The position numbers were made by a program, and so were the translations under genes. Under the pieces are notes generated by a model. It was not told the origin of the DNA. It worked only from the letters and a program-made list of their open reading frames with translations, and did no database searches. A stretch of DNA of 64,000 bases from positions 4,516 to 68,515 of the forward strand of contig JACPXH010000013.1 in NCBI GenBank assembly GCA_016196625.1. Direction: 5' to 3'. This document shows, in pieces, positions 5,202-53,433 of the stretch; the first letter of the stretch is position 1; every line of letters starts with the position of its first letter. The stretch is from Candidatus Parcubacteria bacterium. GTDB taxonomy: Bacteria > Patescibacteriota > Minisyncoccia > JACPXH01.

Positions 5202-5263
5202 GGGCGGCGAATTATGAATAACTAATCATGAATACCAGGAGGCGTAGGGTCCCGATTCGCGAT

Positions 5264-6298
5264 TCATAATTCCTGATTCAGTAGCGATCCGTACATTTCC
5301 TTGAGTCGTGCCGCCACAGCTTCGAGACTATGATGCTGGACCATCTGTTTGGCGTTGGCCGCGAGCCGTGCGCGGAGTGTTGCATCTTCTACGAGGCGTT
5401 TTAGATGTATGGCAAAATCCGCTTCGTCTTTGGCTTTGAGACAATTCTCTTCATGTGTGAGCCAGTCTTTATAGACCGGAATGTCGCGCACGAGAATGGG
5501 TCGGCCCACCGCCGCAGCCTCCAAAATCACCATGCCCTGGTTTTCTTCGAGCGACGGGAATACAAAAATGTCGCCGGCCGCATAGAGGCGCTCGGCGCCT
5601 TCGACGTTTCCGGGAAACTGAATGTTCTGGGGCAGGTCTTGGGGCAGGTTCTGCGCGGCAATGCTCGATGAGTATACTTTGCCGAACCAGATGAATTGGT
5701 TTTTCGGAAATGCACGCGCGAGGTTGACGAAAGTGTTGATGCCCTTGCGGGGGATGACGAGACCGACGTTAAATACGACCAGGTCCTTAAGCCCAAACCG
5801 CTCGCGGATATTTCGGCGGTTTTCTTCGGAGTCTTTGAAGCGTTCCGTGTCAACGCCGTTCGTGATGACTTCAAGGCGCGCTCGGACCGGATATTTCTGC
5901 AAGAGTCCTTTTGTGTATTCGGATGGACAGAGGACCAAGTCCGCTTGGCTGTACGCCCAGCGCAGGTATCGCCGGATCAGCGGATAGAGGGGTTTATTTA
6001 TCCAAAACACGCCTTGCGCGTCTTCAGCCGTGGTGTGGGCGTAGACGATCACTTTTTTGCCTTGGCGCTTCATCTTGCGCATGAGCCACGCCGAGCGCAG
6101 CCACGGCGTATTGAACTGTACGATGTTGCAATCCGCCGGCAACCCTTCGTGCCATTCCGTTACCGAGATTCCCGCCCGCGCGAGCGCGGTCTTTTGATTT
6201 TTGTAGCTTGAAAGGAGTCCGGTGCCGACATTTTGATACAGCCGCCCTTTAGCCAGATGGTAGTACTCAAGGTAGATGCAGACGCTGGCAGGGGTCAT
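5264..6298 (-). CDS. Glycosyltransferase family 4 (GT-B)
   Basis: C-terminal EX7E-type region (FPSLEENQGMVILEAAAVGRPILVRDIP). Confidence 0.8.
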   Translation of the reverse strand: MTPASVCIYLEYYHLAKGRLYQNVGTGLLSSYKNQKTALARAGISVTEWHEGLPADCNIVQFNTPWLRSAWLMRKMKRQGKKVIVYAHTTAEDAQGVFWINKPLYPLIRRYLRWAYSQADLVLCPSEYTKGLLQKYPVRARLEVITNGVDTERFKDSEENRRNIRERFGLKDLVVFNVGLVIPRKGINTFVNLARAFPKNQFIWFGKVYSSSIAAQNLPQDLPQNIQFPGNVEGAERLYAAGDIFVFPSLEENQGMVILEAAAVGRPILVRDIPVYKDWLTHEENCLKAKDEADFAIHLKRLVEDATLRARLAANAKQMVQHHSLEAVAARLKEMYGSLLNQEL

Positions 6299-9935: not shown

Positions 9936-10040
9936 TGATTCCAGAGTAGCAGATTCTGTGGGGCGGAACAACGATTGACAGTTTAAATGGTCTTGTGTTC
10001 TCTTCGAGGGGGCGCGCAGACCGCGCCTTATCCGCCTTCG

Positions 10041-10117
10041 TGAAACTCCACGGGCAGAGCCCGTGGTCCTCTGCGACGGCGGGCAGAAAACCGCGGGCGT
10101 AAGCCCGCGGAGCTTCA
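10041..10117. repeat. Tandem pair of REP-like hairpin elements (TGAAACTCCACGGGCagaGCCCGTGG... and CCGCGGGCgtaaGCCCGCGGAGCTTCA)
   Basis: Stems CCACGGGC/GCCCGTGG and CCGCGGGC/GCCCGCGG with AGCTTCA flanks. Related copies at 36906, 36998, 37746, 53336 and 63723. Confidence 0.6.
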
Positions 10118-10822
10118 TTTGCTTTCTGGCCCCACGAGGCGCTTCAGATCGGCATAGGTTTTCGGCAGGTCAATGCGCCGGCCATTCACGAAAAACGCCG
10201 GCACGCTCTCGACGCCTGACTTCCGTCCGCTCCGGAGATCGTCCATGATTTTTTTGCGCACGCTCGGGTCGTTGAAGTCTTTGCGAAAGCGCTGGATATC
10301 AAGGCCGAGTTCACGGGCGTACCGTTCAAATTGGACTTCGACACGCGTCGCGCTCTTCCAGTCCGATTGGCGCTCATAGAGTATTTGATAGTAATCCCAG
10401 AACCTTTCCTGTTGGCCAGCCGCTTCGGCCGCAACCGCAGCCGAGCGGGCATTGGGGTGAATGCGATCCAATGGGAAGTGCCGGTAGATAAAGCGGAAGC
10501 GCCCGCCAAAATCTTTTTCAAGCTGATTGGTCGCTTGCCAAAAATTGCGGCAGGCCGGGCACTGGAAGTCGCTATACTCGACGACCGTAACGTGCGCCTC
10601 GGTCGGACCGCGGGTCCAGTCACGCTCGGTTGGCGCAAGCGCCAAGAGTGCGGCGGCGGTCTGCCCTGCGTTAGGCTCGATACGGGAGAGGGAAAATCGC
10701 CAGATGGCCCAAGAGATTGCGACCACAATCAAAACAATGCCCAGCCACAGGGCGTATTTCTTGGCGGATTGAGGCCATTTTCCGTTTGGAGGTTGACCGG
10801 GCATCAACCTTGAGGAAACCAA
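10115..10822 (-). CDS. DsbA-like thioredoxin-fold thiol-disulfide oxidoreductase
   Basis: CxxC active site (FQCPACRNFW) in a thioredoxin-like context. N-terminal TM/signal. Confidence 0.7.
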   Translation of the reverse strand: MVSSRLMPGQPPNGKWPQSAKKYALWLGIVLIVVAISWAIWRFSLSRIEPNAGQTAAALLALAPTERDWTRGPTEAHVTVVEYSDFQCPACRNFWQATNQLEKDFGGRFRFIYRHFPLDRIHPNARSAAVAAEAAGQQERFWDYYQILYERQSDWKSATRVEVQFERYARELGLDIQRFRKDFNDPSVRKKIMDDLRSGRKSGVESVPAFFVNGRRIDLPKTYADLKRLVGPESK

Positions 10823-13997: not shown

Positions 13998-15452
13998 TTA
14001 AGATTTACCCAACGCACCACAAGGCCATCGTCTCCTGCTCGCCTCGCTTCGCGGGCGAAGCGGGCCGGTGGATGAATGGTTGGTGCGTAGGCCTTCGGTG
14101 CGGGGTTCCGCCCCGCCACCGAAATACGAGGTGCCGCCGACTCCCGTCGGCGGGGCTCCACGGTGATGCGGATGGCCGCCAAAGCGGGTGCGGCTGACGC
14201 GGTGGATGGGGCGTTGCAGCGGGTGATGGGTGCGGGCCGGCGGGAGCTCGGGGAGCTTTGATACGGGCAGAGACTTTCGGATGAGCCGTTCAATGCTGCG
14301 AACTTCGCGCTGTTCTTCAGGCAGCACGAACGATATGGCGTGCCCCTCGGCCCCGGCCCGGGCCGTGCGGCCGATCCGGTGAACGTAGTCTTCTGAATGC
14401 GCCGGCAAGTCGTAGTTGAGCACGAGTTCAATCCCCTGTACGTCAATGCCGCGCGCCGCAATGTCGGTAGCCACAAGCACCCGGTATTTACCCGACTTAA
14501 ACCCGTCCAGCGCATCGCGCCGCTGCCCGAGCGAGCGGTTGGAGTGAATTTCGGCCGCGCTGTGGCTCATGGCGCGTACAGCCTTGGTCACGCGTTTGGC
14601 GCCGTATTTCGTACGGGTGAATACCAGCGCCGACCCGGTGTGTTCCGTGAGGATAATCTCGAGCAGGCGGTTTTTCGCTTCGCGCTTTACGATGAAGAGC
14701 TCTTGAGTCACGCGTTCAACCGTGGTGCCGGAAGGTGCGATTTCAATGCGAACGGGGAGTTTCATGTTGGCCGTTGCGACCCTCATGATTGCCGGCGAGA
14801 GCGTGGCCGAAAACAACATGGTCTGGCGATCTTTGGGAACGGCCTGGAGGATTTTTTGGACTTGCGGCAGAAACCCCATGTCGAGCATGCGGTCGGCTTC
14901 GTCGAGGACGAGCATATGGACGTTTCCGAGCGTTACCGTTTTCTGATTCAGGTGGTCAATCAACCGGCCGGGGGTGGCAACGATAATGTGGGGGTTCTTC
15001 CCAATCGCTTGGATCTGCGGCTTCATGGAAGCGCCGCCGATTAAAACCGCTGTGCGCAGCCCGAGTGAGCGGCCGACCGCGTGAAGCATCTCATCAACTT
15101 GGAGCGCCAGTTCTCGCGTGGGCACCAGAACAAGGCCTCGCCCTTTGGTTCGGGCGAGGATTTGAATCATGGGGATACCGAAGGCGAGAGTCTTGCCGGT
15201 TCCAGTTTGCGCCACGCCCACAACGTCTTTGCCCTGCATGGCAATCGGAATCGCTTGACGCTGAATCGGGGTCGGGGTCGCATAGCGGAGCTGTGCGAGA
15301 ATCTCAAGAATTCCCGGCGCGATGCCAAGACCGTAGAAACCAGAAGCGGGTGGTTGGACTGGTTGCCTCATGGAATCATCGGGGCCGATTGGTCTGCGAT
15401 TATCGGGAGCATCACGAGAACCTCTGTGTGGCGTTTGTAAAATTCCACGCAC
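13998..15452 (-). CDS. DEAD-box ATP-dependent RNA helicase with a Gly-rich C-terminal tail
   Basis: Q motif and motif I (PTPIQRQAIP...AQTGTGKT), DEAD, SAT and HRIGRTAR motifs. The last roughly 50 codons are encoded by repeat element A (14006-14161). Confidence 0.85.
   Translation of the reverse strand: MRGILQTPHRGSRDAPDNRRPIGPDDSMRQPVQPPASGFYGLGIAPGILEILAQLRYATPTPIQRQAIPIAMQGKDVVGVAQTGTGKTLAFGIPMIQILARTKGRGLVLVPTRELALQVDEMLHAVGRSLGLRTAVLIGGASMKPQIQAIGKNPHIIVATPGRLIDHLNQKTVTLGNVHMLVLDEADRMLDMGFLPQVQKILQAVPKDRQTMLFSATLSPAIMRVATANMKLPVRIEIAPSGTTVERVTQELFIVKREAKNRLLEIILTEHTGSALVFTRTKYGAKRVTKAVRAMSHSAAEIHSNRSLGQRRDALDGFKSGKYRVLVATDIAARGIDVQGIELVLNYDLPAHSEDYVHRIGRTARAGAEGHAISFVLPEEQREVRSIERLIRKSLPVSKLPELPPARTHHPLQRPIHRVSRTRFGGHPHHRGAPPTGVGGTSYFGGGAEPRTEGLRTNHSSTGPLRPRSEASRRRWPCGALGKS
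14006..14161. repeat. Hairpin-rich repeat element, copy A (156 nt), in-frame inside the 3' end of the DEAD-box helicase CDS
   Basis: About 95% identical to 40600-40728 apart from a 27-nt insertion. Contains a 13-bp stem (CTTCGGTGCGGGG ttcc GCCCCGCCACCGAAG) and an 8-bp stem (CCGCCGAC tccc GTCGGCGG). Confidence 0.6.
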
Positions 15453-18220: not shown

Positions 18221-18282
18221 AGCGGCTCGCTACTCGGCTAGGCTCTGTCCAGTGGAGGCGTGTGCTCGTTTCTCGTGCGTCA

Positions 18283-18314
18283 ACATATTATAATACGATC
18301 GTATTATAATATGT
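18283..18314. promoter_or_regulatory. 32-bp perfect palindrome ACATATTATAATACGATCGTATTATAATATGT overlapping the start codon of the PaaX-like regulator; putative auto-operator
   Basis: Perfect dyad read directly. Half-site ATTATAATACGA. Related sites at 18967, 21361, 37578 and 49594. Confidence 0.5.
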
Positions 18315-18921
18315 GAACGGGAGGGAATCAGAGCGTATGAAGATAAACGGAGCGAAACCGGTGCGCCGGCGGCCGAAGCTACGCGGGCCTTCCCGGGAGT
18401 TCCTGCGGTATCTCGCCGTTGCCGGAGTCGTTGTGGCGATCTCATTGATTGCGCCGCAGCTTCCGGTACAGCTCCTCAAGAACTTCCTGCGCAGACGCCA
18501 CACGTTCGACCCGTCGTCCTTCAGGCAATTTGGTGCGCGTCTGCACAAGCAAGGGCTTGTCAAAATGCAGCAACGAGAAAGCATCCTTACGTTCCGTTTG
18601 ACTGCGGGGGGAGAACGTCTGGCGCAGCAGATCGCGCTCACTAACATCTCGATTGTTCGGCCGCCACGGTGGGATGGTCTTTGGCGGGTCGTCCTCTTTG
18701 ATATCCCGGAGCATGATCGCTTTACGCGGGATTCATTCCGCGCCCTCTTAGAGCGCATCGGATTTGTGAAGATTCAGCGGAGTGTGTTTGCTCATCCCTT
18801 TCCATGCGACAAAGAGATTGAGCTTGCCGTTCGAGTATTCCATCTCGATCGCTCGGTTATTCTGTTTACCGCGACGACTCTGAGCGACGATCGCAGACTC
18901 CGAAGTTTATTTAATCTGTAA
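18313..18921 (+). CDS. PaaX-family-like transcriptional regulator (wHTH + WDGxW domain)
   Basis: PRWDGLWRVVLFDIPEHD is comparable to E. coli PaaX PAWDGKWLLLLSEGLDKS. It is preceded by a wHTH-like segment and followed by GFVKIQRSVF. The start may be the ATG at 18337. Confidence 0.5.
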   Translation: MNGRESERMKINGAKPVRRRPKLRGPSREFLRYLAVAGVVVAISLIAPQLPVQLLKNFLRRRHTFDPSSFRQFGARLHKQGLVKMQQRESILTFRLTAGGERLAQQIALTNISIVRPPRWDGLWRVVLFDIPEHDRFTRDSFRALLERIGFVKIQRSVFAHPFPCDKEIELAVRVFHLDRSVILFTATTLSDDRRLRSLFNL

Positions 18922-19003
18922 GCCGAGCAGATTCTCGATCTGGTTTCTGATTTTCTGTTTGCCAAATTATACTACGATCGTATTATAATGCGTAAACGTT
19001 TGG
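18907..19003. repeat. About 95-bp segment (3' tail of the PaaX-like gene plus downstream near-palindrome 18967-18990), duplicated at 37517-37616
   Basis: About 97% identity to 37517-37616 (copies differ at 2 positions; TTTATTTAATCTGTAAGCCGAGCAGATTCTCGATCTGGTTTCTGATTTTCTGTTTGCCAAATTATACTACGATCGTA[T/G]TATAATGCGTAA[A/G]CGTTT). The site ATTATACTACGATCGTATTATAAT is a 24-bp dyad with one mismatch. Confidence 0.6.
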
Positions 19004-21050: not shown

Positions 21051-21360
21051 TGTCAGTCCTCCGTTCGTCTGCGCGCGCCGTATGTGGCGCTACGGCTGCC
21101 GAGATTCCTCTGCGGCAACGAAGAACAGACTGGCTAGAAATCCCCTCTTCGCTGCCGCAGAAATGGCTTTGGTTCTGAAAACTTGTTTAGCGTACTATAC
21201 TCTTTACTGCATTTACTGTCAATAGGAAAGAGACGGGTTTTCAACCGGCTGTATGTATCGGACGATGAGGTCCTTCGCTTCTTGATAAGCTCGAGGCTCA
21301 GGATGACGCCTTGCGTCACTTCGTCATCCCTCGACGAGCTCGGGACTCCTCACATTTACG

Positions 21361-21386
21361 CATTATAATACGATCGTAGTATAATG
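21361..21386. promoter_or_regulatory. 26-bp near-perfect palindrome CATTATAATACGATCGTAGTATAATG (PaaX-like site family), solo copy
   Basis: One mismatch in the dyad. Lies about 95 bp beyond the 3' end of the giant gene. Confidence 0.45.
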
Positions 21387-21481
21387 TGGCAGACAAAAAA
21401 TTAGAACTAGAGACAGAATTTAAACTCTGTCTGCTTAGCAATGACGCTCCGTGCGGGAGGTGCTGTGAGGCAACTGCGCAA

Positions 21482-28593: not shown

Positions 28594-31020
28594 TTACCGC
28601 CCGGTCCCCTGCTCTGTGGGTGGAGCTGTGGTGAGCGCGGGCATTTGGGAAAGTCGGGTCCGAACTTCTTGTTCGACCGCCGCGCGGTCCCGGCCGTATA
28701 TTGAGCTCGACCACTGCCGAACTGCGTGTGCCGCCGCCGGATCCCCTTTGCGCGGCAGGTTGATCACAAAGTTAAAGGGCGAAGTGGTTTTGCCTTGAGA
28801 CATGAGCCGCGCGTAGGCGTTGAAGTTATCAAGGTTGATGAGATCAGATGCGGCAAAGGCCGGCGCAAACTGGGGTTCGATGGATTCGGCGTCTTCCACT
28901 CCCACCCGAAACGAAACCAAGGATCCCACGTTGCCGAAGACCGCGTTTTTGATTTCGTCCGTGAGTTGTTTGATGAATTGATGCGCGAGCGTGAGATTGA
29001 GCCGGTACTTGCGTGCTTCGGACAGGATTGTCGCAATGGACGGGGTCGCGAAGCTCTGGAATTCGTCCAAGTAGAGGTAAAAATCGGACCGCGCCTCCTC
29101 GGCTGCGTCGGTTCGGCTCAAAGCCGCCAAAAGCAGTTTGCCCACGAGAATCAGGCCAAGGAGGGAGCTGTTGAGTTCGCCCAGACGCCCTTTGGTGAGG
29201 TTAACGAGGAGAATCTTGCGTTCGTCCATCACTTGGCGAAAATTAAATGAGCTTTGCTCTTGGGCGATGATGGGGCGCATGATGTCGTTGGCAATGAACA
29301 GGTTCATCTTTGAAGTGATGTAGGGCACCATGTTCGCGAGCGCCGCTTCCCCGCCGGCTTTCTCCGCCTCCAGCTCCCAGAAATTCTTGATTACCATGTT
29401 CGTCGTGCGTGAGAGTTTCAACTTGCGAAACTCTTTATCCGCGAGCACCCGCGGGATTTCCAGGAGCGTATTGCCGGAGGCAGGATCTTCCATGACCAGC
29501 AGCACGGCGTTGCGCATGTATTGTTCAAACATGGGCCCGCCGGTAACTTTCAGATCGTAGAGCTTGTCAAAAATGGCGATGAGTTCATTCGCGATGAAGG
29601 TTTTCTGCTCGGGGTGCGCCGGGTCATATTCAAGCATGTTAAGCCCGAGGGGCCGTTCGATGTCGCCCGGGTTGAAATAGATTACTTCTTCCCGGCGGCT
29701 CGCGGGCACGAGTCCGAGGAGGTCGTCGGCCAAATCTCCGTGCGGGTCTATAAGCGCAAGGCCCTCTCCGGCCTCAATGTCTTGACGCGCGAGTTCTTTG
29801 ATGAGCGACGATTTGCCGGTTCCAGTTTGGCCTATAATATAGAGGTGTCTCCGGCGGTCTTCGCGCGCGATACGGATTACGGTTTCTCTGCCCCGAAAGA
29901 CGTTGCGCCCCAACATCAGACCTTCAAGGGGAAGGTTGAGCGGCGGCTCGGCCTGACGGGCTTTGAGCGCGTGCAGTTTGGGTGCTTCGAGCGAGGGGGT
30001 CGCAAAGTGATACATGCTACTCAACTCATCGGCACTCAAGATAAGCGCATCGCGTGAACGAAAGAGACGCCATGAAAACGCAAAGAGAAGCGACTCCAAC
30101 CGGCCGCCCTTGCGCCGCTTAAATGAGAGCGAGTTGGTCGGGGGAGCGCTCAAGGGGGCAAAGGCGGTTTCCATCTGTTCGAGCAGCGCTTTCGCCCGAG
30201 TCTCTTCTGCCGCCGAGGCCACCACCCGAACATTGGCTGCAAAGACGGGCGTGCGGGCCTTGCGCTCGATGGCCTCCACCGCTTCGGGGTCAACGGGTTC
30301 GTTCTTGCTTTCGCCGGGGCCTCGGGTCGAGTTTGCTTTGAGCTTTTGGGCTTGGGCCACGCTTTCGGCGCCCCAGCGTTTGGGAGCGGGTTGGAGCAGA
30401 ATTTGGATGGCCGCACCCTCCCCTTCTTTGGCAATTTTGCTTAAGGCCGTGGCAATCGCGCTTAAGGGATCCACTTCAAGCTCACGGAAGGTGCGCAGCG
30501 ACAGGCGGCTGTTTTTGACCTCAAGGATTGAGGCTTCGTGTCTGCCGTGGGGATTGAACAGGTTATAGTCCGGTACCGCCTCGATTACGGCTTCCGGGAA
30601 AAAGCCGTGGATGTGTTTTTCGAACGCTTCAGCCAGCCGCCTCGGGAAGGCCGCGAAAAACTGAATTTCCTCGCCCACATGGGGGACGGCCAGTTCAAAG
30701 GCAACCGTGGGCATCCCCCGGAGGATCGCCCGCCACCACTTCTCTTTTAGAAACGTCAGGCTCGCGTAGAACTGACTCATGACGGCGAGCCCCTCGCGCA
30801 TTCGTTCCACTGCCGATCGATCCGACTCCAGGGGACGGTTCGGAAGCGCAATCGCGAAGAGGGCGAGGTTCAGGGCGCGCGCGGTCTCCCCTCGGCGTCG
30901 GAGCGTAACTAAACCCCAAGCCGCCGCAGTGCCGCCCACCGTAAGGACGGCGAGGGTTATGAGGATGAGCCAGAGGAGGAAAGAGAGATCGAGGGGCACG
31001 GTCAAAAGTTCAAATGCCAA
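28594..31020 (-). CDS. Membrane-anchored VirB4/TraG/HerA-like P-loop NTPase (AAA_10/DUF87-type)
   Basis: Two N-terminal TM helices. Walker A GQTGTGKSS followed by LIDPHGDL, Walker B FYLYLDEFQ, then LTLAHQ. TTG start at 31018-31020 lies inside an AT-rich heptad leader. Confidence 0.55.
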   Translation of the reverse strand: MAFELLTVPLDLSFLLWLILITLAVLTVGGTAAAWGLVTLRRRGETARALNLALFAIALPNRPLESDRSAVERMREGLAVMSQFYASLTFLKEKWWRAILRGMPTVAFELAVPHVGEEIQFFAAFPRRLAEAFEKHIHGFFPEAVIEAVPDYNLFNPHGRHEASILEVKNSRLSLRTFRELEVDPLSAIATALSKIAKEGEGAAIQILLQPAPKRWGAESVAQAQKLKANSTRGPGESKNEPVDPEAVEAIERKARTPVFAANVRVVASAAEETRAKALLEQMETAFAPLSAPPTNSLSFKRRKGGRLESLLFAFSWRLFRSRDALILSADELSSMYHFATPSLEAPKLHALKARQAEPPLNLPLEGLMLGRNVFRGRETVIRIAREDRRRHLYIIGQTGTGKSSLIKELARQDIEAGEGLALIDPHGDLADDLLGLVPASRREEVIYFNPGDIERPLGLNMLEYDPAHPEQKTFIANELIAIFDKLYDLKVTGGPMFEQYMRNAVLLVMEDPASGNTLLEIPRVLADKEFRKLKLSRTTNMVIKNFWELEAEKAGGEAALANMVPYITSKMNLFIANDIMRPIIAQEQSSFNFRQVMDERKILLVNLTKGRLGELNSSLLGLILVGKLLLAALSRTDAAEEARSDFYLYLDEFQSFATPSIATILSEARKYRLNLTLAHQFIKQLTDEIKNAVFGNVGSLVSFRVGVEDAESIEPQFAPAFAASDLINLDNFNAYARLMSQGKTTSPFNFVINLPRKGDPAAAHAVRQWSSSIYGRDRAAVEQEVRTRLSQMPALTTAPPTEQGTGR

Positions 31021-31088
31021 AATCCAAATGCCAAATCAAACTTAAAGTTCAAAATCCAAAATCGCTTCGGCATTTGGGCTTTGGATTT
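31021..31088. promoter_or_regulatory. AT-rich heptad-repeat leader (units TTTGRMW) abutting the ATPase start
   Basis: Shares an about 55-nt block (AAATGCCGAAGCGATTTTGGATTTTGAACTTTAAGTTTGATTTG) with 33745-33821. Related repeats at 31488-31551, 49621-49675 and 60941-61124. Confidence 0.5.
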
Positions 31089-31487
31089 CTAAATTGGTTT
31101 CAGTTTTCCCCTGCTCACTAAATCGTTGTACAGGTGGTCCACGAGAGCATCGTGGAAAGCGTCAATGAGGCGCGCGTTGTGCGAGGCCTTGACCGCGCCA
31201 ATGGCTTGCCCCAAGCCTTTGAGGAACGCGACGTCAACGAGCTCTTGCACCTTCAGTGCTTCTTCTTGGGCGGTCGGAGCGCCCCCGGACGCTTGGCCAG
31301 TGGTTGGAGGTACGGTGATGTTTGGCGGCGGGACCGCGCCCGCGATTTTTTCGCCGACGTATTCGCGAATCGTTGCTCGCTCCGATTCCGGTTCGCGCTG
31401 TTCAGAGAGCGTCTGCTTGCGCTCCGCGAGGCGCTCCTCAAGCTCCCGGATTTCTGATTCAAGCTGATGAGGGGTTTCGTAGGGCAT
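31089..31487 (-). CDS. Coiled-coil hypothetical protein (132 aa)
   Basis: ATG at 31485-31487 (MPYETPHQLESEIRELEERL...) directly follows a heptad-repeat leader. Confidence 0.45.
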   Translation of the reverse strand: MPYETPHQLESEIRELEERLAERKQTLSEQREPESERATIREYVGEKIAGAVPPPNITVPPTTGQASGGAPTAQEEALKVQELVDVAFLKGLGQAIGAVKASHNARLIDAFHDALVDHLYNDLVSRGKLKPI

Positions 31488-31551
31488 ATCTCGAAATGAC
31501 AAATGCCAAAATCCAAATGTCAAATGCAAAATCAAACAGCGCTACAGTATA

Positions 31552-31806
31552 TCACCCTTCGATTTTCAGAGATTTGTATTTTCGTACAATGCGCATGATG
31601 GCTAGTGGGATGTAAAAGACGGGAAAGACGTATGACACCACTCCAACCGCAAGGTACGGGAGGTTAATTCGAAACAAGCCGATGTCGTACGGCGCCACAG
31701 TATCGGGATATATGGAAGCAACTACCAATAGTAAAACCGCAGGTCCCTCAATCGCCATGAAGGTCCCCGCAAGTTTCCCGATGTAGCGCCTCAGGCGCGG
31801 GTCCAT
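31552..31806 (-). CDS. Small membrane protein (84 aa)
   Basis: Two hydrophobic helices. Confidence 0.35.
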   Translation of the reverse strand: MDPRLRRYIGKLAGTFMAIEGPAVLLLVVASIYPDTVAPYDIGLFRINLPYLAVGVVSYVFPVFYIPLAIMRIVRKYKSLKIEG

Positions 31807-31999
31807 GATTGCTTAGTCTAGCACAGTCCGGGGCCTCGACTTACTTTAATTTATCCACACGGCGGCATGCAGGAGCGTGCTAGACTGGAAGCGGAAAAAC
31901 TCCTTTTTGGATCGTACGGGATTGCTTCGCCCGCCTCCGCCAGTTGGCGGATGGCGGGCTCGCAATGACGGCCGACAGCGGCTCTCGCTGAACTCTATT

Positions 32000-33694
32000 A
32001 TGGATAAGCGCCAACGAACTTGGATTTTCCTTGGCATCATTCTTGTAGTTGCCATCTTTTTTCGCTTCTGGCAGTTTACCGAATTTCCTCCCGGGTTGTA
32101 TCCGGACGAGGCGGTCAATGGCGTAAATGGTCTCCAAGCGGTTGAGACCGGCAACTATCAAGTTTTCTACCCGGACAACAACGGCCGCGAGGGGCTGTGG
32201 ATGAACGTGCAGGGATTAGTCTCAAAGGCGCTCGGCCCTTCGCCCTGGGCTCTGCGGGTGCCCAGCATGGTGATAGGCGTGCTCACGGTTCTCGGCCTTT
32301 TCTTATTAGTGCGCGAGCTAGTCGGCGACGAGGTGGCTTTGGTTTCGGCAGCGCTGCTGGCGACTTCCTTTTGGCACACGGTGTTTTCCCGCATGGCCTT
32401 CCGGGCCATTCTATTGCCGTTCGTGCTTACCTATCTTTTCTACTTTTTGGTTCGGGGATTGAAACGCGGGCGCGGATCAGATTTTGTCGGAGCCGGTTTT
32501 TTCTTCGGGCTGGGTTTTCACACCTATATTTCTTACCGGATCGTGCCGCTGCTGCTGGTTGCGCTGTTCGGCGTACTCATTTGGTTAAAGCGGCGCAAGG
32601 TTTGGCAGCCAATATTCTGCGCGCCGTGTGCGGTTAGTCTTATGCTGATTGTGGGGCTTGTGGTGGCAACTCCCATGCTTCTTTATTTGATTCAGCACCC
32701 GGAAGATTGGAGCGGTCGGACCGGCGGCATTTCTGTCTGGAGCGCGCAAAGTCCTCTCAAGGCCGTTCTCATCTCCACGGCCGCAACATTAGGGCAGTTT
32801 AACGTGCTCGGGGATCGCAACTGGCGGCATAACTTCCCCGGCCGGCCGGAGCTGTTTTGGCCCGCCGGGATTATGATGCTGGTAGGGCTTGCGATAACGT
32901 TTCGGACAGCGTTCCGAATATTCCGCGCAAAGCCAGCCGCGCCACCCTCGGAGGAAACCGTTCGGCCATGCCACTCTAATATACTAGTATATGATAGTGG
33001 AAACGGCTGGCTCGTCATTTTCGGGGCGTGGCTCATGCTCGGATGGTTCTTTGCCTTGATGGTGCCGGCGATTCTCACGCGCGAAGGCCTGCCCCATGCG
33101 CTGCGCACCATCGGCACTATCCCGCCCGCGTACGCGTTTGCCGGGGTTGGCACGTGGCTCACGTGGAAGGCGTTGCGGCGCAAGGTTCTCGGTGGGCTCG
33201 AAGGATTTTTGGAACGCGATCCGAATCTGGAGTTTCTGCGATCCAGATTGAACCGTATTCGGCGGTGGTTCGGGGTGCTGCTCGCGACTTTTCTTCTGTG
33301 GGTGGCGGGCAGCGAAGGGGTTACGTACTTTGTGCGTTGGGCGCCCCACCCGCGCGTGGCCGACGCTTTTGCGGCTCACCAGACCGAGCTCGCCAACTAC
33401 ATCAACGCCGCGGAGCCCGACATTTCGATCTACGTGGTGGTTAACGCCCCCAGTCTCAACGTCAACGGCATCTCGCTCAACGCCCAACCCCTCGTGTATC
33501 TGAATCACGGCCGGCCCAACTTGTTTTTCGTAACTCCAGAGACCATCGGTTCGATCCCCCGCGATCTGCATCGGGCCGAGATTATCCTGCTCGATTCGGA
33601 TCGGCAGTTTCTGGCCCAACTCCAGCGTGAGCGTTATCCCCAAGGAAAGACCAAGGCAGTCTCGGGGACGATCGTGCCGTTGGTGATTCCGTAA
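32000..33694 (+). CDS. Glycosyltransferase family 39 (ArnT/PMT-like) polytopic membrane protein
   Basis: N-terminal loop motif GLYPDEAVNGVNG (DE motif) after the first TM, with many TM helices. ATG at 32000. Confidence 0.7.
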   Translation: MDKRQRTWIFLGIILVVAIFFRFWQFTEFPPGLYPDEAVNGVNGLQAVETGNYQVFYPDNNGREGLWMNVQGLVSKALGPSPWALRVPSMVIGVLTVLGLFLLVRELVGDEVALVSAALLATSFWHTVFSRMAFRAILLPFVLTYLFYFLVRGLKRGRGSDFVGAGFFFGLGFHTYISYRIVPLLLVALFGVLIWLKRRKVWQPIFCAPCAVSLMLIVGLVVATPMLLYLIQHPEDWSGRTGGISVWSAQSPLKAVLISTAATLGQFNVLGDRNWRHNFPGRPELFWPAGIMMLVGLAITFRTAFRIFRAKPAAPPSEETVRPCHSNILVYDSGNGWLVIFGAWLMLGWFFALMVPAILTREGLPHALRTIGTIPPAYAFAGVGTWLTWKALRRKVLGGLEGFLERDPNLEFLRSRLNRIRRWFGVLLATFLLWVAGSEGVTYFVRWAPHPRVADAFAAHQTELANYINAAEPDISIYVVVNAPSLNVNGISLNAQPLVYLNHGRPNLFFVTPETIGSIPRDLHRAEIILLDSDRQFLAQLQRERYPQGKTKAVSGTIVPLVIP

Positions 33695-33821
33695 GTTCAA
33701 AGTTCAAAGTTCAAATTTCAAAGCTCAAATGTCAAATCCAAAGCCCAAATGCCGAAGCGATTTTGGATTTTGAACTTTAAGTTTGATTTGAAATTTGGAT
33801 TTTGTCATTTGGATTTCAGGT
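33695..33821. repeat. AT-rich heptad repeats in palindromic arrangement ((GTTCAAA)3 TTTCAAA GCTCAAA TGTCAAA ... then the inverse TTTTGGATTTTGAACTTTAAGTTTGATTTG...)
   Basis: Tandem 7-mers read directly. The right half is a leader for the downstream GT39 gene. Confidence 0.6.
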
Positions 33822-35729
33822 ATGACCGCTTCATCAGTACGCCACAATATATCCATTACGGGTTGGGCGTTCGTCATCCTCGCCCTCATGTTCGTCCTGA
33901 TGTTTGCGTCAGCGTGGGACGACACGCTTACCTTCGACGAAATCGCCCATATCCCCGCCGGATACAGCTACCTCACGAGAGCCGATATGCGGCTAAATCC
34001 CGAACACCCGCCACTCCTTAAAGACTGGGCCGCACTCCCGCTTCTTGCCGCCGGCCTCAAGTTCCCGGCAGACAATCCGGGCTGGAAAGATGACGTGAAT
34101 GGGCAATGGACGTTCGGGTACGGATTTATCTATTTTGCGGGGAACAACCCCGATGTAATCCGGCACTTGGCGCGAATTCCGATGATGGTTCTCACCGTAG
34201 GGCTGGGAGCACTCTTGTTTTGGTGGACGAGACGCCGCTATGGGCAGGTTGCCGCGTTCACGGCGCTGGTATTGTTTGCGCTTTCGCCCAACTTCATTGC
34301 TCACGGTCGCTACGTTACCACTGACGTGGGCGCTTCGTTTGGATTTTTAGTCGCCATCATCGCCTTCATTCGCTTTCTGGAAGAGCCGACTTCAAAGCGA
34401 CGTTTGGTGCTGGCGGGTTTTGCGTATGGGTTTGCCCAACTGCTTAAGTTTTCCGCCTTTTTGCTTGGGCCGCTGTTTGTGGCGCTCACGGTTCTTTACA
34501 TCGTTCTGGAGAGCGACGCGGGCTTCTGGTCTATGGTGCGCCGGTACTTGGGCGCGCTCATTGCCATTTTTGCCATCGGCTACGCGTTCGTCTGGGCGGT
34601 GTATGTATTTCATACTGCGGGCTACCCTCCCGCCCGTCAAGCTCACGACATGGCCGCAGAACTATATAACTACGCCGGCGGTCCGTCCTCACCCGCCTTT
34701 GCCGTGTGCAATCCGGCTCTCGTGGGACTTAAACGCTTTGCGCGCTGTCCGGCTGAAATCGGAATCTGGATGGCAGACAAGCCCGTTTTGCGCGCCTTGG
34801 CGCACTATCTCAAAGGAGTGCTGATGGTCTTCCAGCGTTCAGCCGGCGGTAACACTACGTACTTCTGGGGGCAAGTTTCCGCGGCCGGGTGGCGGTCCTA
34901 CTTTCCCGCGATCTATGTGCTCAAAGAGACTCTGCCGGCGTTGATTCTGGCTTTCTTGGCCTTAGCGTATGCGCTCGCCCGGAGCATTCGGAGCATGACG
35001 CGCGAAGCCCATTGTTTTAAACGGTCTCTGCGCTGGTTGCGCGAGCACCCAGCCGAGACTGCCATGAGCGCTTTTGTTGCGTTTTATTGGTTGACCAGCA
35101 TCCGTTCAAACCTGAACATCGGCTTCAGGCACATCCTGCCAACGCTGCCTTTTATCTACATTTTGACCGCGCGCCAAATTGCCCTTTGGCTTAAGCCGGT
35201 TATTCAATCGGGCGGCCAGATGCCTTGGCGCACGCTCGCAAATTTTGCCAAAGGGTATGGAACGGTGCTGCGTAAATCAGTACTACTCGGGGTGTTCATG
35301 CTGTGGCAGGCGGTCAATACCTTTGCAATTTTTCCGTCGTACCTTGCCCATTTCAACGAGTTGGCCGGCGGACCTGCCAGCGGCTACAAGTGGGCGGTGG
35401 ACTCAAACTTGGACTGGGGTCAGGACCTGAAACGCTTGGGCGACTGGCTTGAAGTCAATAACATCCCCAAGATAAAACTGGATTATTTTGGTGGCGGCGT
35501 GCCCGAGTACTATCTGGGCGATCGATACGAAAAGCTTCGCTGCGACGACAAAGCGTGTGCGGCCCCAACGTCCGGCTGGGTGGCGGTTTCGGCTACGCTT
35601 TTACAGGGTGGGCGCGGCATGGCCGCGGCCGGTTATGACAAGCGAACCGACTACTACCGCTGGCTTGAGCGCTACGAGCCGCCGGTGGCCAAGATCGGGT
35701 ATTCGATTTTCGTGTATCGGATTCAATAG
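33822..35729 (+). CDS. Glycosyltransferase family 39 (ArnT/PMT-like), second copy
   Basis: DDTLTFDEIAHIPAGYSYL with many TM helices. ATG at 33822. Confidence 0.7.
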   Translation: MTASSVRHNISITGWAFVILALMFVLMFASAWDDTLTFDEIAHIPAGYSYLTRADMRLNPEHPPLLKDWAALPLLAAGLKFPADNPGWKDDVNGQWTFGYGFIYFAGNNPDVIRHLARIPMMVLTVGLGALLFWWTRRRYGQVAAFTALVLFALSPNFIAHGRYVTTDVGASFGFLVAIIAFIRFLEEPTSKRRLVLAGFAYGFAQLLKFSAFLLGPLFVALTVLYIVLESDAGFWSMVRRYLGALIAIFAIGYAFVWAVYVFHTAGYPPARQAHDMAAELYNYAGGPSSPAFAVCNPALVGLKRFARCPAEIGIWMADKPVLRALAHYLKGVLMVFQRSAGGNTTYFWGQVSAAGWRSYFPAIYVLKETLPALILAFLALAYALARSIRSMTREAHCFKRSLRWLREHPAETAMSAFVAFYWLTSIRSNLNIGFRHILPTLPFIYILTARQIALWLKPVIQSGGQMPWRTLANFAKGYGTVLRKSVLLGVFMLWQAVNTFAIFPSYLAHFNELAGGPASGYKWAVDSNLDWGQDLKRLGDWLEVNNIPKIKLDYFGGGVPEYYLGDRYEKLRCDDKACAAPTSGWVAVSATLLQGGRGMAAAGYDKRTDYYRWLERYEPPVAKIGYSIFVYRIQ

Positions 35730-36905: not shown

Positions 36906-37022
36906 CCCGCCGTCGCAGAAAGCCACGGCCGTGAGGCCGTGGATGAATGCGTAAGCAGAGTCCTTCCGAAGCTCGAAGGACAAAGGAGGATGCTTTGGCG
37001 GGCGTAAGCCCGCGGAGCTTTA
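36906..37022. repeat. Cluster of REP-like hairpins (CCACGGCCgtgaGGCCGTGG; GCGGGCgtaaGCCCGCGGAGCTT)
   Basis: Same family as the elements at 10041-10117, here with the first unit inverted. Confidence 0.55.
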
Positions 37023-37099
37023 TAAAAAGTTAAGAGCCGCCGCGAAGCGATGACTCTGAAGGACGACTCTCTTGGGCGGTCGTCCGATTGCCCGAAGTC

Positions 37100-37522
37100 T
37101 CACGGGAGAGCCGCGAGGACCTTTTCCACCACCTTGCGATGGTTCGGAAAAAAATCCTGCTTGGCGAGGATGTCCCGGGGCTTGAACACCCCGATTTCCT
37201 CGCTCTCGTCTCCCTCGGACTTCATCTGCGGGAGGGCCGTGAGGTTTGCCCGAAAGATGGTGAGGATGTGGCTGCCCTTGTCCTCGGAGTGGACGACTGC
37301 GAGGTCATTCTCCGACAAGGACACACCAATCTCCTCTTCCAACTCCCGAATGGCGCAACCCCGGGCCGTTTCCGTTGCTTCGCCCCTACCGCCGGGCAAC
37401 TTCCAGAAAACTGGTGCCGGCTTTTTGGGGTCCCGAATGAGCGGGATGCCCTGGGGCGTGACGAGGAGAACTGCAACTGCGTGTCCTTTTTTTGGTGCTG
37501 TTTTCGAGAACGTAGATTTTAT
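37100..37522 (-). CDS. NUDIX hydrolase with no canonical start codon (possibly 5'-disrupted)
   Basis: Nudix box GGRGEATETARGCAIRELEEEIGV. The open frame extends upstream (..KGHAVAVLLVTPQGIPLIRDPKK..) to an in-frame stop at 37523-37525 with no ATG or GTG. The only listed start is the TTG at 37399, which falls inside the fold. Confidence 0.45.
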   Translation of the reverse strand: MKSTFSKTAPKKGHAVAVLLVTPQGIPLIRDPKKPAPVFWKLPGGRGEATETARGCAIRELEEEIGVSLSENDLAVVHSEDKGSHILTIFRANLTALPQMKSEGDESEEIGVFKPRDILAKQDFFPNHRKVVEKVLAALP

Positions 37523-37616
37523 TTAATCTGTAAGCCGAGCAGATTCTCGATCTGGTTTCTGATTTTCTGTTTGCCAAATTATACTACGATCGTAGTATAA
37601 TGCGTAAGCGTTTTGG
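37517..37616. repeat. Second copy of the 95-bp PaaX-gene-tail + palindrome segment (perfect 24-bp palindrome ATTATACTACGATCGTAGTATAAT at 37578-37601)
   Basis: Near-identical to 18907-19003. Abuts the 5' end of the NUDIX reading frame. Confidence 0.6.
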
Positions 37617-37745: not shown

Positions 37746-37772
37746 CCACGGGCGTAAGCCCGTGGAGCTTCA
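37746..37772. repeat. REP-like hairpin CCACGGGCgtaaGCCCGTGGAGCTTCA
   Basis: Family member. Confidence 0.5.
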
Positions 37773-37800
37773 CTTTATCGCCGGCCGAGGTTACTTTCTT

Positions 37801-40545: not shown

Positions 40546-40599
40546 ACGTGAGGAATATAGAATCTCGAATTATGAATCACGAATAACGGCTTAAATTCT

Positions 40600-40728
40600 T
40601 ACCCAACGCACCAGAAGGCCATCGGCTCCTGCCGGTAGATGAATGGTTGGTGCGTAGGCCTTCGGTGCGGGGTTCCGCCCCGCCACCGAAGTACGAGGTG
40701 CCGCCGACTCCAGTCGGCGGGGCTCCAC
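40600..40728. repeat. Hairpin-rich repeat element, copy B (129 nt), in the serS upstream region
   Basis: Near-identical to 14006-14161, including the stop-codon-proximal end. Remains open in the DEAD-helicase frame. Confidence 0.6.
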
Positions 40729-40763: not shown

Positions 40764-40793
40764 CCATTCTAATGTATTAATACATTAGAATGG
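40764..40793. promoter_or_regulatory. 30-bp perfect palindrome CCATTCTAATGTATTAATACATTAGAATGG, third copy of the TrpR-like site
   Basis: Perfect dyad. Lies 14 nt after the NUDIX-HD gene stop and about 220 nt upstream of the serS start. Confidence 0.5.
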
Positions 40794-43999: not shown

Positions 44000-44152
44000 A
44001 ACGATTCTCGGTTATTGGTTTTAGAGTTTCAGTTTCGAGTTGCCGGTTTAGGTTAGGCGGCGCATTAGCTGAAAACTATCGGAGGTATTGGTGATAAAGA
44101 ATAAGGTTGGGATAATACGCTGTCAAGGGATAACTACTGTTTGTTAAAACTT

Positions 44153-49437: not shown

Positions 49438-49593
49438 GTTTTTGGTATTAAAGCCGATATCCGGCCCGCGCCACGGGGTTTTCGGAAAAGAGGCTAGAGA
49501 AACGGTTGATCATAACAGCGCGAGCCCAGTATATACACGACCAGACGAAGAAAGCAAAAACGTTTCGCCGGCCGCAAGCTATCCAGTGCCACG

Positions 49594-49615
49594 TTATACT
49601 ACGATCGTAGTATAA
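49594..49615. promoter_or_regulatory. 22-bp perfect palindrome TTATACTACGATCGTAGTATAA (PaaX-like site family), about 160 bp upstream of mreB
   Basis: Perfect dyad. The downstream flank TATGTAAGCGTT resembles the flanks of the copies at 18990 and 37601. Confidence 0.45.
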
Positions 49616-49690
49616 TATGTAAGCGTTATGTAAACGTTTTGGATATTTTGGATTCTGAGCTTGATTTAAAATGAAGTTGTATATGCCGAA

Positions 49691-49728
49691 CGCAAAAAGG
49701 AACCGGGAGCCGACTCGTCGGCTCCCGG
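49691..49728 (-). terminator. Rho-independent terminator (CCGGGAGCCGAC tcg TCGGCTCCCGG followed by a T-run on the minus strand)
   Basis: Perfect 12-bp stem. The minus strand continues TTCCTTTTTGCG. Lies right after the 49733-50263 gene stop. Confidence 0.6.
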
Positions 49729-49732
49729 TGGG

Positions 49733-50263
49733 CTAGATGGTTCGCGGATAAAGGCCGCGTACCTCCTGCGGGAGAGAATCCGCCGAGAGAGGCAGCGCGT
49801 ATCCCTCCTCCAAAACCATTTTGTACAATTCCTCGTGCGCGTGCTGGATGAGCTGGAGCTTCTGGAGGATGGGAGGAAGTCTCCGGTCGGAAAGCAGCTC
49901 CTTGAGTTTCCTCACGGCGCGTTGGCGTCGCGACTCAACGAACAAAGGGACCCCTATGAGTCGGCCGGCGATCCCGCCGACGATCACGAACAGGATCGAA
50001 ACCCCCAGACCCACCACAACGCGGATACTGCCTGATGTGGACGGGGGAGGGAGCGGGACGGCGAACGCCACGGCAAGCTGATCGGCGAAGATCGCGACGA
50101 CGACACTTGCAAGGAAACCGAACACTCCACCCGCAAAGGGACACAATCCGCGTCCAAACTTCAAAAAGCGGAGCCCTGCGAGCGCATGACTTACTTCCTT
50201 GGCGAACTTTGCCTCATCGGGAGTGAGGCGCTCCACCAGAAAGGTGCGAACCGATCCACCCAT
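49733..50263 (-). CDS. Membrane hypothetical protein (176 aa)
   Basis: Two to three TM helices. No motif. Confidence 0.4.
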   Translation of the reverse strand: MGGSVRTFLVERLTPDEAKFAKEVSHALAGLRFLKFGRGLCPFAGGVFGFLASVVVAIFADQLAVAFAVPLPPPSTSGSIRVVVGLGVSILFVIVGGIAGRLIGVPLFVESRRQRAVRKLKELLSDRRLPPILQKLQLIQHAHEELYKMVLEEGYALPLSADSLPQEVRGLYPRTI

Positions 50264-51371: not shown

Positions 51372-52616
51372 CTATTTGAACCGTTTTCCTATCTGTTCAA
51401 TGGCAACCAATTCTGTCGTTTGGGTTGATCGAGCTTTGAGCTCAACCGAACCGCGCGCGAGGGTTTTCTCGCTTATCACCACCCGCCACGGCAAACCAAT
51501 CAGATCGGCGTCGGCAAACTTGACACCGGCGGATTCGTCACGGTCGTCGTAGAGAACCGCAATCCCGACATCCTGCAGTTCACGGTAGAGTTTTTCCGCC
51601 GCCTCCATGATTCTTGATTCTTGATTCTTGATTCCAACGAGGTGTACGTCGTACGGCGCCACCTCTTTCGGCCACACGATGCCTTTCTCGTCGTGGTGCA
51701 CTTCTACGACCGTGGCCATCACGCGCCCCGGCCCGATGCCGTAAGAGCCCATGACCACGGGCTTCATCGAGCCGTCTTCGTCCGTGAATATGAGATCCAA
51801 ATCTTTCGAGTACTTGGTGCCGAGTTTATATATGTGTCCCACCTCGACGCTCGTGCCCTCTTTGAGTGTGCCGGAACAATTCGGGCATGTCTCCCCTGCT
51901 TTTGCGGTCGCAATTTCTGTATTCTGTGCGAACGCGCACGATTCGCAGTAGACGGTCGTATCTTCTCCCGCCTCGGTGAGCACCTGAAACTCGTGCGTGA
52001 AATCTTTGGTAAATGCTCCGCCTGACGCTTCCACGATTTTGGCGTCCAAACCGCAGCGCCGAAAGATGTTGGCGTAGGCAGTCTTGCTTTTTTCGTAATA
52101 CGCGTCGAGTCCAGCCTGATTTCGATCGAAGCTGTAAAGATCTTTCATGAAAAACTCACGCAGCCGGATGAGTCCTGATTTCGCGCGCGGCTCGTTCCGG
52201 AACTTAAGTTGAATCTGATAGAGGTAGAGCGGCAGATCTTTGTAGGAACGAATTGAGTTTTTCGCGACTTCAGCCAGCGGCTCCTCGTGGGTTATGCCCA
52301 AGCCCAGCTCGCGGTCAGACGAATCTTTGAATTGGTACATCACGTCCCGCAAGGTTTCCCATCGACCGGTCTTGACCCAGAGGTCCTTGGATTGGAGAGC
52401 CGAAAGGAGTAATTCCTGCCCACCGATCGCGTTCATCTCTTCTCGGATGATCGTGTTAATCCGCTCGAGAACCCGAAGGCCCAATGGCAGAAAGGCGTAC
52501 ACGCCGGCCATGACTTTGGCCACAAAGCCGCCACGCACAAGCAGCTGCGCGTTGACCGACACTTCATCTTTTGGGTTTTGACGGGTTGTTTTTCCGAAGA
52601 GAATACTTTGGCGCAT
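51372..52616 (-). CDS. proS: Prolyl-tRNA synthetase (short, editing-domain-less form)
   Basis: Class II motifs and an archaeal/eukaryote-type ProRS pattern (GVYAFLPLGLRVLERI ... GRWETL). ATG at 52614-52616 preferred. Confidence 0.8.
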   Translation of the reverse strand: MRQSILFGKTTRQNPKDEVSVNAQLLVRGGFVAKVMAGVYAFLPLGLRVLERINTIIREEMNAIGGQELLLSALQSKDLWVKTGRWETLRDVMYQFKDSSDRELGLGITHEEPLAEVAKNSIRSYKDLPLYLYQIQLKFRNEPRAKSGLIRLREFFMKDLYSFDRNQAGLDAYYEKSKTAYANIFRRCGLDAKIVEASGGAFTKDFTHEFQVLTEAGEDTTVYCESCAFAQNTEIATAKAGETCPNCSGTLKEGTSVEVGHIYKLGTKYSKDLDLIFTDEDGSMKPVVMGSYGIGPGRVMATVVEVHHDEKGIVWPKEVAPYDVHLVGIKNQESRIMEAAEKLYRELQDVGIAVLYDDRDESAGVKFADADLIGLPWRVVISEKTLARGSVELKARSTQTTELVAIEQIGKRFK

Positions 52617-53176: not shown

Positions 53177-53335
53177 CTTATTGGCTACCCGCCGTCGCAG
53201 AGGGCCATGGGCTCTGTCCGTGGGTGAATGCGCGGTTGGTATTCCGGGTGGGGTTGAGGGGGGTATATTCCTTGAGGCTGTGGCGGATGACGCTGCAGCC
53301 CGCTTGGATTCGCCCGAAAGGCGAATAGCGGGCTG

Positions 53336-53361
53336 CCACGGGCTCCGCCCGTGGAGCTTCA
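53336..53361. repeat. REP-like hairpin CCACGGGctccgCCCGTGGAGCTTCA
   Basis: Family member. Confidence 0.5.
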
Positions 53362-53433
53362 CTTCGGTGGGCATCGTCGTGAGGAGCTGGGTAAATCCGC
53401 GTTCGCCTCGGCTGGGGGAAATGCGGGTCATGG

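Follow-up and report, generated by a model that had tools for sequence, protein, structure and literature searches.

Heptad elements and their neighbouring genes

The window, by which we mean the whole analysed stretch of 64,000 nt from a Candidatus Parcubacteria bacterium, carries blocks in which the tetranucleotide CAAA (TTTG on the opposite strand) recurs every 7 nt, at 31001–31088, 31494–31540, 33695–33821 and 60945–61124. The blocks and the genes around them are arranged as follows.

28594–30998, minus strand: TrwB/HerA-like ATPase (Pfam); start corrected to GTG 30998, not TTG 31020
30999–31088, minus strand: two-armed element in the spacer from the 132-aa gene (TAG 31089–31091) to the ATPase (GTG 30998); in minus-strand order a short CAAA arm, GCCGAAGCG and a long TTTG arm
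31089–31487, minus strand: 132-aa gene, function unassigned, with elements on either side
31488–31551, minus strand: block with a one-armed TTTGNNN array (about 31494–31540) in the spacer from an 84-aa ORF (stop 31552–31554) to ATG 31487
32000–33694, plus strand: PMT_2 glycosyltransferase, copy 1 (Pfam); its stop codon abuts the next element
33695–33821, plus strand: complete element separating the two PMT_2 genes (TAA 33692–33694 to ATG 33822); NNNCAAA arm 33695–33750, centre GCCGAAGCG, TTTGNNN arm 33759–33817
33822–35729, plus strand: PMT_2/PMT glycosyltransferase, copy 2 (Pfam); ATG 5 nt past the last heptad
49636–49670, plus strand: doubtful heptad-like stretch TTTTGGATATTTTGGATTCTGAGCTTGATTT, adjoining a palindromic TATAAT element; not taken as a family member
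59933–60944, minus strand: MreB (Pfam); start corrected to ATG 60944, not TTG 60964
60945–61124, minus strand: mosaic element in the spacer from MurA (TAA 61125–61127) to MreB (ATG 60944); heptad arms 61071–61124 and 60945–60992 flank a GC-rich insert of about 80 nt (60993–61070) in which the mini-hairpin ATGACGCGCGGCGTCAT lies together with a GTCATCCTGAGCG...GGGATGAC module
61012–60986, minus strand: terminator-like site within block 60945–61124
61125–62399, minus strand: MurA (Pfam); its stop codon abuts the element

A run finder applied to the window detected six period-7 CAAA/TTTG runs of at least three units against 0.13 expected from Markov shuffles, and self-similar segments numbered eight at lag 7 as compared to 0–2 at each other lag from 4 to 12. 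Within the heptad blocks, TRF reported periods of 7, 14 and 21. The GC content of the elements is about 32–35% in a window of about 57%, confirming the AT-rich heptads in high-GC DNA described by the initial annotation. Four of the five blocks listed there belong to one family (31001–31088, 31488–31551, 33695–33821 and 60945–61124), whereas the fifth, 49621–49675, contains only two to three degenerate units, yields no match to the family profile at E-values up to 10 and forms in its 5′ part a portion of another repeat (D3, a palindromic double-TATAAT element). Five copies of this palindrome, TTATACTACGATCGTAGTATAAT, with two facing TATAAT boxes around CGATCG, were found at 18281–18324, 18960–19003, 21356–21399, 37572–37615 and 49587–49630, all in spacers adjoining gene starts, and it is therefore likely a bidirectional promoter or operator. 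A 96-nt repeat of 98% identity lies at 18906–19001 and 37518–37613.

Read in gene sense, three of the four blocks are two-armed: NNNCAAA units make up the 5′ arm and TTTGNNN units the 3′ arm, with a short centre between them. Every block takes up the full spacer of two co-directional genes, beginning at the stop codon of the first and ending a few nucleotides short of the start of the second. Both the inverted-repeat architecture and the contact of every block with the stop codon of the upstream gene had been overlooked. The block of about 55 nt noted earlier as common to the leaders of the ATPase and of the second glycosyltransferase (GT39 copy 2) is indeed shared, measuring 57 nt and occurring as reverse complements (33734–33790 and 31032–31088, identical); it is contained in an 83-nt inverted repeat of 94% identity formed by 31006–31088 and 33734–33816. 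The block at 60945–61124 is a mosaic, combining heptad arms with two GC-rich modules. GC-rich hairpin modules are present at 31913–31968 (GTCATTGCGAGC...GCGAAGCAATC type) and 60993–61065 (GTCATCCTGAGCG...CGAAGGATCTC type); the former is conserved in the divergent spacer between the glycosyltransferase and 132-aa genes of the relatives L128–L131, and similar modules adjoin heptad arrays in other phyla, e.g. at locus L041.

The repeats had been described as running directly into start codons. This description holds for ATG 33822 and ATG 31487, which follow the last heptad by 5–8 nt, and fails for the TTG starts thought to be encoded by the repeat itself, as these are ORF extensions according to the orthologs of both genes. 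MreB orthologs from three relatives begin MFSRRLGIDLGT at the ATG equivalent to 60944 (ATG-TTC/TTT-TCN/TTC-CGN-CGN-CTC-GGN-ATT-GAC, MF(S/F)RRLGID) whatever sequence lies upstream, which fixes this start, and within the long TTG-initiated ORF the Pfam MreB match starts at residue 11. Likewise, the ATPase orthologs of L128 and L130 begin GTG-CCN/ACC-CTC-GAT-CTC, equivalent to GTG 30998, and L130 carries an in-frame TAG two codons upstream of its GTG, together fixing GTG 30998. The 132-aa protein has a 100% identical counterpart, HYZ80_03165, in a Candidatus Parcubacteria MAG. The suggestion of a promoter UP-like element did not find support, as no sigma-70-like site was detected in, or just downstream of, any block and the blocks lie between co-directional genes in apparent operons.

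Period-7 arrays of other units also occur in the window, indicating that heptad periodicity is a general trait of the spacers of this genome. They comprise a GAATNNN/NNNATTC hairpin at 5202–5290, five NNATTCN units at 40546–40595, seven NNAAACN units at 44000–44050 and the perfect heptads TGATTCT (3.9 copies, 51608–51634) and AGTAGTT (3.3 copies, 58741–58763), and all five abut putative minus-strand start codons. Further spacer repeats include an exact 24-nt palindrome, TTCTAATGTATTAATACATTAGAA, at 1990–2013, 2505–2528 and 40767–40790, with a weaker copy at 32971–32998. A GC-rich hairpin, CCACGGGC-N4-GCCCGTGG with an adjoining AGCTTCAY, was observed at 10040–10118, 36998–37023, 37748–37773, 53185–53223, 53328–53375 and 63722–63769, several copies overlapping putative gene starts with the opposite strand reading ATGAAGCTCC. 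Finally, a GC-rich 98-nt direct repeat of 97% identity with hairpins lies at 14064–14161 and 40631–40728, with adjacent 34-nt repeats at 14005 and 40599.

A multi-copy family with fixed arm order in many phyla

We scanned a 596-Gb collection of species-representative genomes with the pattern TTTGNCATTTGGATTTTGNCATT, which is common to three independent window copies and has 21 fixed bases. Against about 0.3 matches expected by chance, the pattern hit at least 120 stretches, spread over MAGs from many phyla. Among the matches listed were Desulfobacteraceae, Syntrophales and Desulfatiglandales (Thermodesulfobacteriota), Omnitrophota, Planctomycetota (including Brocadiaceae and Phycisphaeraceae), Dehalococcoidia and Anaerolineales (Chloroflexota), Nitrospirota, Ignavibacteria, Calditrichia, Cloacimonadota, Auribacterota, Saganbacteria and Gammaproteobacteria, as well as Saccharibacteria, Paceibacterota and Andersen-, Morani-, Portnoy-, Uhr-, Roizman- and Woesebacteria of the Patescibacteria, to which the close relatives of the source organism belong. 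The carriers among these listed matches included contigs of 0.3–1.2 Mb, a closed chromosome and a single-cell genome (SAG), and the GC content of the matched loci was in the range of 34–67%. The mobile-vector collections yielded no match in PLSDB, one partial match in phage genomes and two contigs in IMG/VR.

A profile HMM built solely from 27 canonical foreign copies (consensus AAATTCCAAATGTCAAAATCCAAATGTCAAATGAAATCCAAATTCCAAAATTCAAAATTTTTGACATTTGGAATTTGGATTTCATTTGACATTTGGATTTTGACATTTGGAATTT, a 115-nt heptad ladder) recovered the window copies at 33707–33816 (E = 1e-20), 31006–31089 (4e-14), 61070–61126 (1e-8), 31495–31576 (7e-7) and 60950–60990 (5e-6). This recovery by a foreign-copy profile supports the reading as a miniature repeat family that had been among the initial suggestions, and extends it to many phyla. 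A further 48 copies lacking the search pattern were present in 815 kb of flanking DNA; this density, 0.59 per 10 kb, equals that of the window. Rfam contained no family at the gathering score, and at the E-value threshold returned only chance plant miRNA precursor hairpins (28 bits as compared to a 102-bit cut-off).

Across 121 sequences the arm order was essentially invariant, with 89 CAAA-then-TTTG pairs and a single reverse one. Element lengths cluster at 100–106 nt, and the canonical copy of about 100–115 nt consists of some seven NNNCAAA units, a short centre and some seven TTTGNNN units. Its constant part is the CAAA/TTTG core, while the triplets vary, the units nevertheless following each other in a conserved order. 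In longer copies the centre is interrupted by foreign inserts, some of which define multi-copy subfamilies with identical inner modules. The centres of the Parcubacteria copies hold GC mini-hairpins (AAAATCGTCCGCCG..CGGCGGTACC and GACGCGCGGCGTC), and those of canonical copies from other phyla are AU-rich and lack a GC stem. In the Desulfobacteraceae MAGs (L093, and L032, L036, L070 and L090), the heptad hairpin forms part of a larger composite repeat, about 430 nt long, whose outer GC-rich hairpins are conserved. Target-site flanks read TA on both sides of some copies and not of others, the element ends being ill-defined and the flanks also heptad-like. Two inverted copies in L093 (923–1116 and 5504–5668) enclose secA and argJ; as the only pair examined, they were considered as the boundaries of a transposon and rejected, since no transposase lies between them.

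Placement relative to genes was evaluated for 213 arrays or hairpins in the 121 sequences, using for the foreign loci a greedy longest-ORF heuristic, by which start distances are approximate and strand assignments robust. Outward TTTG-reading ends faced gene starts in 109 cases and gene stops in 117 (40 and 44 for solo arrays), and the median distance was 17 nt to the stop as compared to 52 nt to the start. Hairpins lay in co-directional, convergent and divergent spacers in a ratio of 43/9/6, against a background of 512/90/93 for all neighbouring gene pairs, so that convergent spacers are not depleted. Family-wide, placement is thus indifferent to gene starts, an outcome that the initial annotation had itself named as contrary to a leader role.

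The numbers bear directly on the proposed SD-independent translation enhancer, in which the U-rich TTTGNNN array would recruit ribosomes without an SD box, via S1 or OB-fold/cold-shock proteins binding about 7 nt each. The balance of 109 starts to 117 stops, the closer distance to stops and the occupied convergent spacers all argue against it, and it leaves the CAAA arm without a role and loses its TTG starts to the ortholog comparison. Within the window the picture is different, as all four copies end 3–12 nt ahead of a start codon lacking an SD box, a start-proximal bias that is absent family-wide. SD boxes, however, are rare for most genes here: a GGAG/GAGG box precedes 5 of 60 longest-ORF starts in the window, or 14 of 60 when any nearby alternative start is allowed, and most starts are preceded by AT-rich sequence. 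The source genome appears to be SD-poor with SD-less starts as the rule, and the heptads are hence unnecessary to explain such starts. Weak local support comes in addition from the one-armed NNATTCN and NNAAACN arrays described above, which abut starts far from the upstream stop, from the array of the 132-aa gene, which keeps its place and 3′ end in relatives of 58% identity, and from the 3′ end preceding the MreB ATG, which is nearly unchanged in L126 (see below). A published parallel exists in the TAACTGA heptamers, which lie immediately ahead of starts where spacers are poor in SD boxes (PMC4679880). Taken together, we consider a dedicated leader function unlikely.

Folding of the arms and turnover at orthologous junctions

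The three two-armed window copies are predicted to fold as long imperfect hairpins with z-scores of −3.4 to −4.3. The minimum free energy hairpin of 33695–33821 (−41.5 kcal/mol, z = −4.25) has its base 3 nt before the TAA and 3 nt before the ATG, and the hairpins of 30999–31088 and 60945–61124 reached z-scores of −3.44 and −4.25, respectively. No hairpin signal was obtained for the one-armed array at 31488–31551 (z = 0.24).

The order of an A-rich 5′ arm and a U-rich 3′ arm (89:1) is the one that a bidirectional intrinsic terminator or attenuator requires, with the central GC mini-hairpin and the U-rich arm providing a hairpin and a U-rich tail from either strand. The GC mini-hairpins of the Parcubacteria copies and the median distance of 17 nt to stop codons would fit such a function, as would the terminator-like site in block 60945–61124. 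No such site was scored, however, in the blocks 31001–31088, 31488–31551 and 33695–33821, and the succession of a GC stem and a U run typical of intrinsic terminators is lacking in the canonical copies, whose centres in other phyla are AU-rich. Furthermore, copies are located within ribosomal-protein operons, and the ordinary GC-stem/T-run terminators of the lineage (49700–49735; L126 20443) look different. We regard a bidirectional terminator or attenuator as very unlikely. An example of the ordinary type is the canonical intrinsic terminator GGAACCGGGAGCCGACTCGTCGGCTCCCGGT with its trailing T run at 49700–49735 of the window (minus strand) and at 20443–20480 of L126; it is conserved downstream of an orthologous 176/178-aa gene and serves as a model of this lineage's terminators.

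Conservation of the paired arms was assessed on the family alignment, for which RNAalifold returned no consensus pairs. When the outer helix was imposed, the CAAA/TTTG cores always paired and the variable triplets paired in about 45% of cases, no more than in shuffles; overall pairing amounted to 78.5% of cells as compared to 80.6% in shuffles, and the covariation score was below that of the shuffles. Chimeric pairs of arms from different elements folded like true partners (−32.3 and −31.6 kcal/mol). The sense strand was the more stable one in 28 of 43 co-directional cases and the antisense strand in 15, a difference that is not significant (p = 0.14). The absence of covariation and of excess triplet pairing indicates that a precise RNA duplex is not under selection. 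The conserved feature is a pair of oppositely oriented unit arrays.

A core-only conservation without arm covariation would also suit recognition unit by unit instead of base pairing, as expected for DNA arrays of oppositely oriented 7-bp (or 14-bp) protein-binding sites, which could be the sub-terminal sites of an internally deleted transposon (a true MITE) or sites of a nucleoid protein. The fixed arm order is typical of transposon ends, subfamilies with differing internal segments occur in several copies per genome, and genome-specific unit sequences are expected if the units co-evolve with a trans factor. Against these points, neither a candidate protein nor an autonomous element was found at the one inverted pair examined (L093), inspection of the flanks, where element ends are ill-defined, revealed no target-site duplication, and viral contigs, plasmids and phages contain almost no copies. 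A spacing of 7 bp would moreover set successive sites on different faces of the duplex. On balance, we deem this explanation distinctly improbable.

The orthologous junctions of relatives show how the elements change over time. The MurA–MreB spacer of L126 (MurA 66% identical) has the same layout of heptad arms and a GTCAT...CTGAGCG module, and its last 34 nt before the MreB ATG match the window at 31 positions. In L125 (71%) the heptads are degenerate, and in L124 (MurA 91%) there are none, the spacer holding an inserted 154-aa gene and a palindrome. This palindrome, CACTATAATATATTAGTATATTATAGTG, is related to TTCTAATGTATTAATACATTAGAA and takes the place of the heptad element. The spacer between the 132-aa gene and the ATPase measures 90 nt in the window, 119 nt in L128/L129, where it is built of ATCAAAA/ATTTTTG units, and 28 nt in L130, a remnant of only three CAAA units with a stop-proximal end identical to the window. 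Ahead of the 132-aa gene, the position of the array and its 3′ end TTTGTCATTTCGAGATATG are conserved in L128/L129, and in L130/L131 the array is degenerate with its period of 7 kept. The spacer between the two glycosyltransferase genes contains an ATCAAAA hairpin in L128 and a CAATTTT/AAAATTG hairpin in L131.

The genome GCA_964409225.1 (L126, L128) has heptad hairpins with the GC-rich centre AAAATCGTCCGCCG..CGGCGGTACC in most of its spacers, including S13–S11 and S11–S4. In relatives of only 58–71% protein identity, heptad elements are retained at the same operon junctions, those of S13–S11–S4 among them. Paralogous copies within a genome match at 75 of 78 positions in the window and at 87 (L128) and 92 of 103 positions in GCA_964409225.1, and copies at orthologous spacers of different genomes scored below threshold. 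As the likeness within genomes by far exceeds that between orthologous spacers, the junctions keep their elements while the sequence is replaced or homogenised in each genome.

Interpretation and comparison with known repeat systems

The heptad blocks are multi-copy elements of fixed arm order that occur in many phyla, are placed without regard to orientation and undergo turnover and homogenisation within genomes. They are best read as a REP/BIME- or MITE-like dispersed repeat and not as a dedicated start-codon leader. Specifically, we favour, with a probability of roughly 55%, a dispersed non-coding extragenic palindromic element of 7-nt units that is transcribed inside operons and acts as a putative REP/BIME-like RNA barrier.

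As the copies occupy whole intercistronic spacers in a compact genome, they should be transcribed together with the flanking genes. In the mRNA, the arms would pair as a weak, ladder-like hairpin of 4-bp A-U-rich helices with mismatched triplets in between, extending from the upstream stop codon to just short of the downstream start. By analogy with REP/BIME, this hairpin may form an intercistronic RNA barrier that protects the upstream message, and the same barrier would partly terminate transcription and modulate the translation of the adjoining cistrons, without serving as a dedicated ribosome-recruiting leader. REPs have a stabilising effect on the mRNA upstream of them. In 2015, Liang, Rudd and Deutscher reportedly observed that terminating ribosomes can stall at REPs located no more than about 15 nt from a stop codon. 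The centre of the heptad element can take up other small repeat modules, giving a BIME-like mosaic, and copies may have spread by transposition through an unseen enzyme, by gene conversion or by replication slippage. Weighing against this reading, no transposase, RAYT or target-site duplication was seen (one inverted pair in L093 and inspection of flanks), and the arms lack covariation, with a sense strand only weakly more stable.

A ~100-nt non-coding element with the same heptad order in Desulfobacterota, Omnitrophota, CPR, Planctomycetota, Chloroflexota and others is not expected from vertical descent. Near-identical elements in more than ten phyla suggest one of two things: that transfer between phyla is frequent in anoxic habitats, or that the carriers share an unrecognised trans-acting factor. 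The elements fill most operon spacers of some streamlined CPR genomes, a setting generally regarded as poor in junk DNA, and their persistence at the same junctions in such genomes hints at selection for some role, for which a purely selfish model does not account. A bolder, and in our estimate quite unlikely, proposal is that the heptad ladder represents a selected class of cis-element in many uncultivated phyla, whose 7-nt register is recognised by a conserved trans factor, e.g. an OB-fold cold-shock or S1-type protein. In SD-poor compact genomes it would collapse spacers of 90–180 nt such that stop and start come to lie at the base of one breathable hairpin, coupling the translation of the two cistrons; the near-identity across more than ten phyla would then reflect selection by that factor or an inter-phylum mobile element.

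The elements also have practical consequences. Logan short-read contigs of the source organism end inside heptad elements (L001 at 1621–1655 and L003 at its 3′ end), indicating that the repeats break short-read assemblies, and in MAG annotation they give rise to false upstream TTG/ATG starts and spurious small ORFs.

Elements of this kind are already known (REP/BIME, MITE, STRR and TAACTGA repeats). Searching the literature by sequence strings and keywords, we found analogues only and did not find the present architecture and distribution described. With the REP/BIME elements of enterobacteria and pseudomonads, the heptad elements share their nature as extragenic, multi-copy imperfect palindromes in operon spacers and at gene 3′ ends that form mosaics with other short motifs and have a species-specific sequence; like REPs, they are also predicted to be transcribed. 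A REP is a 20–40-nt unit with a GTAG head and a link to RAYT, whereas the heptad element is about 100 nt long and built of 7-nt units with a constant tetranucleotide, without GTAG. Unlike REPs, it has arms without covariation, the same sequence in many phyla and no known RAYT. MITEs resemble the heptad elements in size, inverted ends, non-coding nature, several similar copies per genome and presence or absence between relatives. They are bounded by a single terminal repeat, whereas the ends of the heptad element are arrays of short units, for which neither a target-site duplication nor a parent transposon was found in the flanks inspected and at the one inverted pair examined, and in contrast to MITEs, heptad copies at orthologous sites change their unit sequence along with the rest of the genome.

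The TAACTGA direct repeats of marine Beggiatoaceae, cyanobacteria and Bacteroidetes, for which S1, Csp and CsrA have been proposed as binders (MacGregor 2015, PMC4679880), are likewise heptamers in SD-poor spacers, often a few nucleotides from a start and patchily distributed across phyla, no mechanism of transfer being known for them. They differ in their unit, are exclusively direct repeats of two to six copies and have a strong start-proximal bias, whereas the heptad family is palindromic and, taken as a whole, free of start bias. The cyanobacterial STRR and the long simple-sequence repeats of 7 nt (Mrazek et al. 2007) are, as far as they are summarised in PMC4679880, also tandem heptanucleotides at many intergenic loci, with polymerase slippage as a likely source of copy-number change in both cases. 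According to that summary, an STRR array repeats a single unit near-perfectly and in one orientation, whereas the heptad elements hold four of seven bases constant and arrange differing units in a set order and in inverted pairs.
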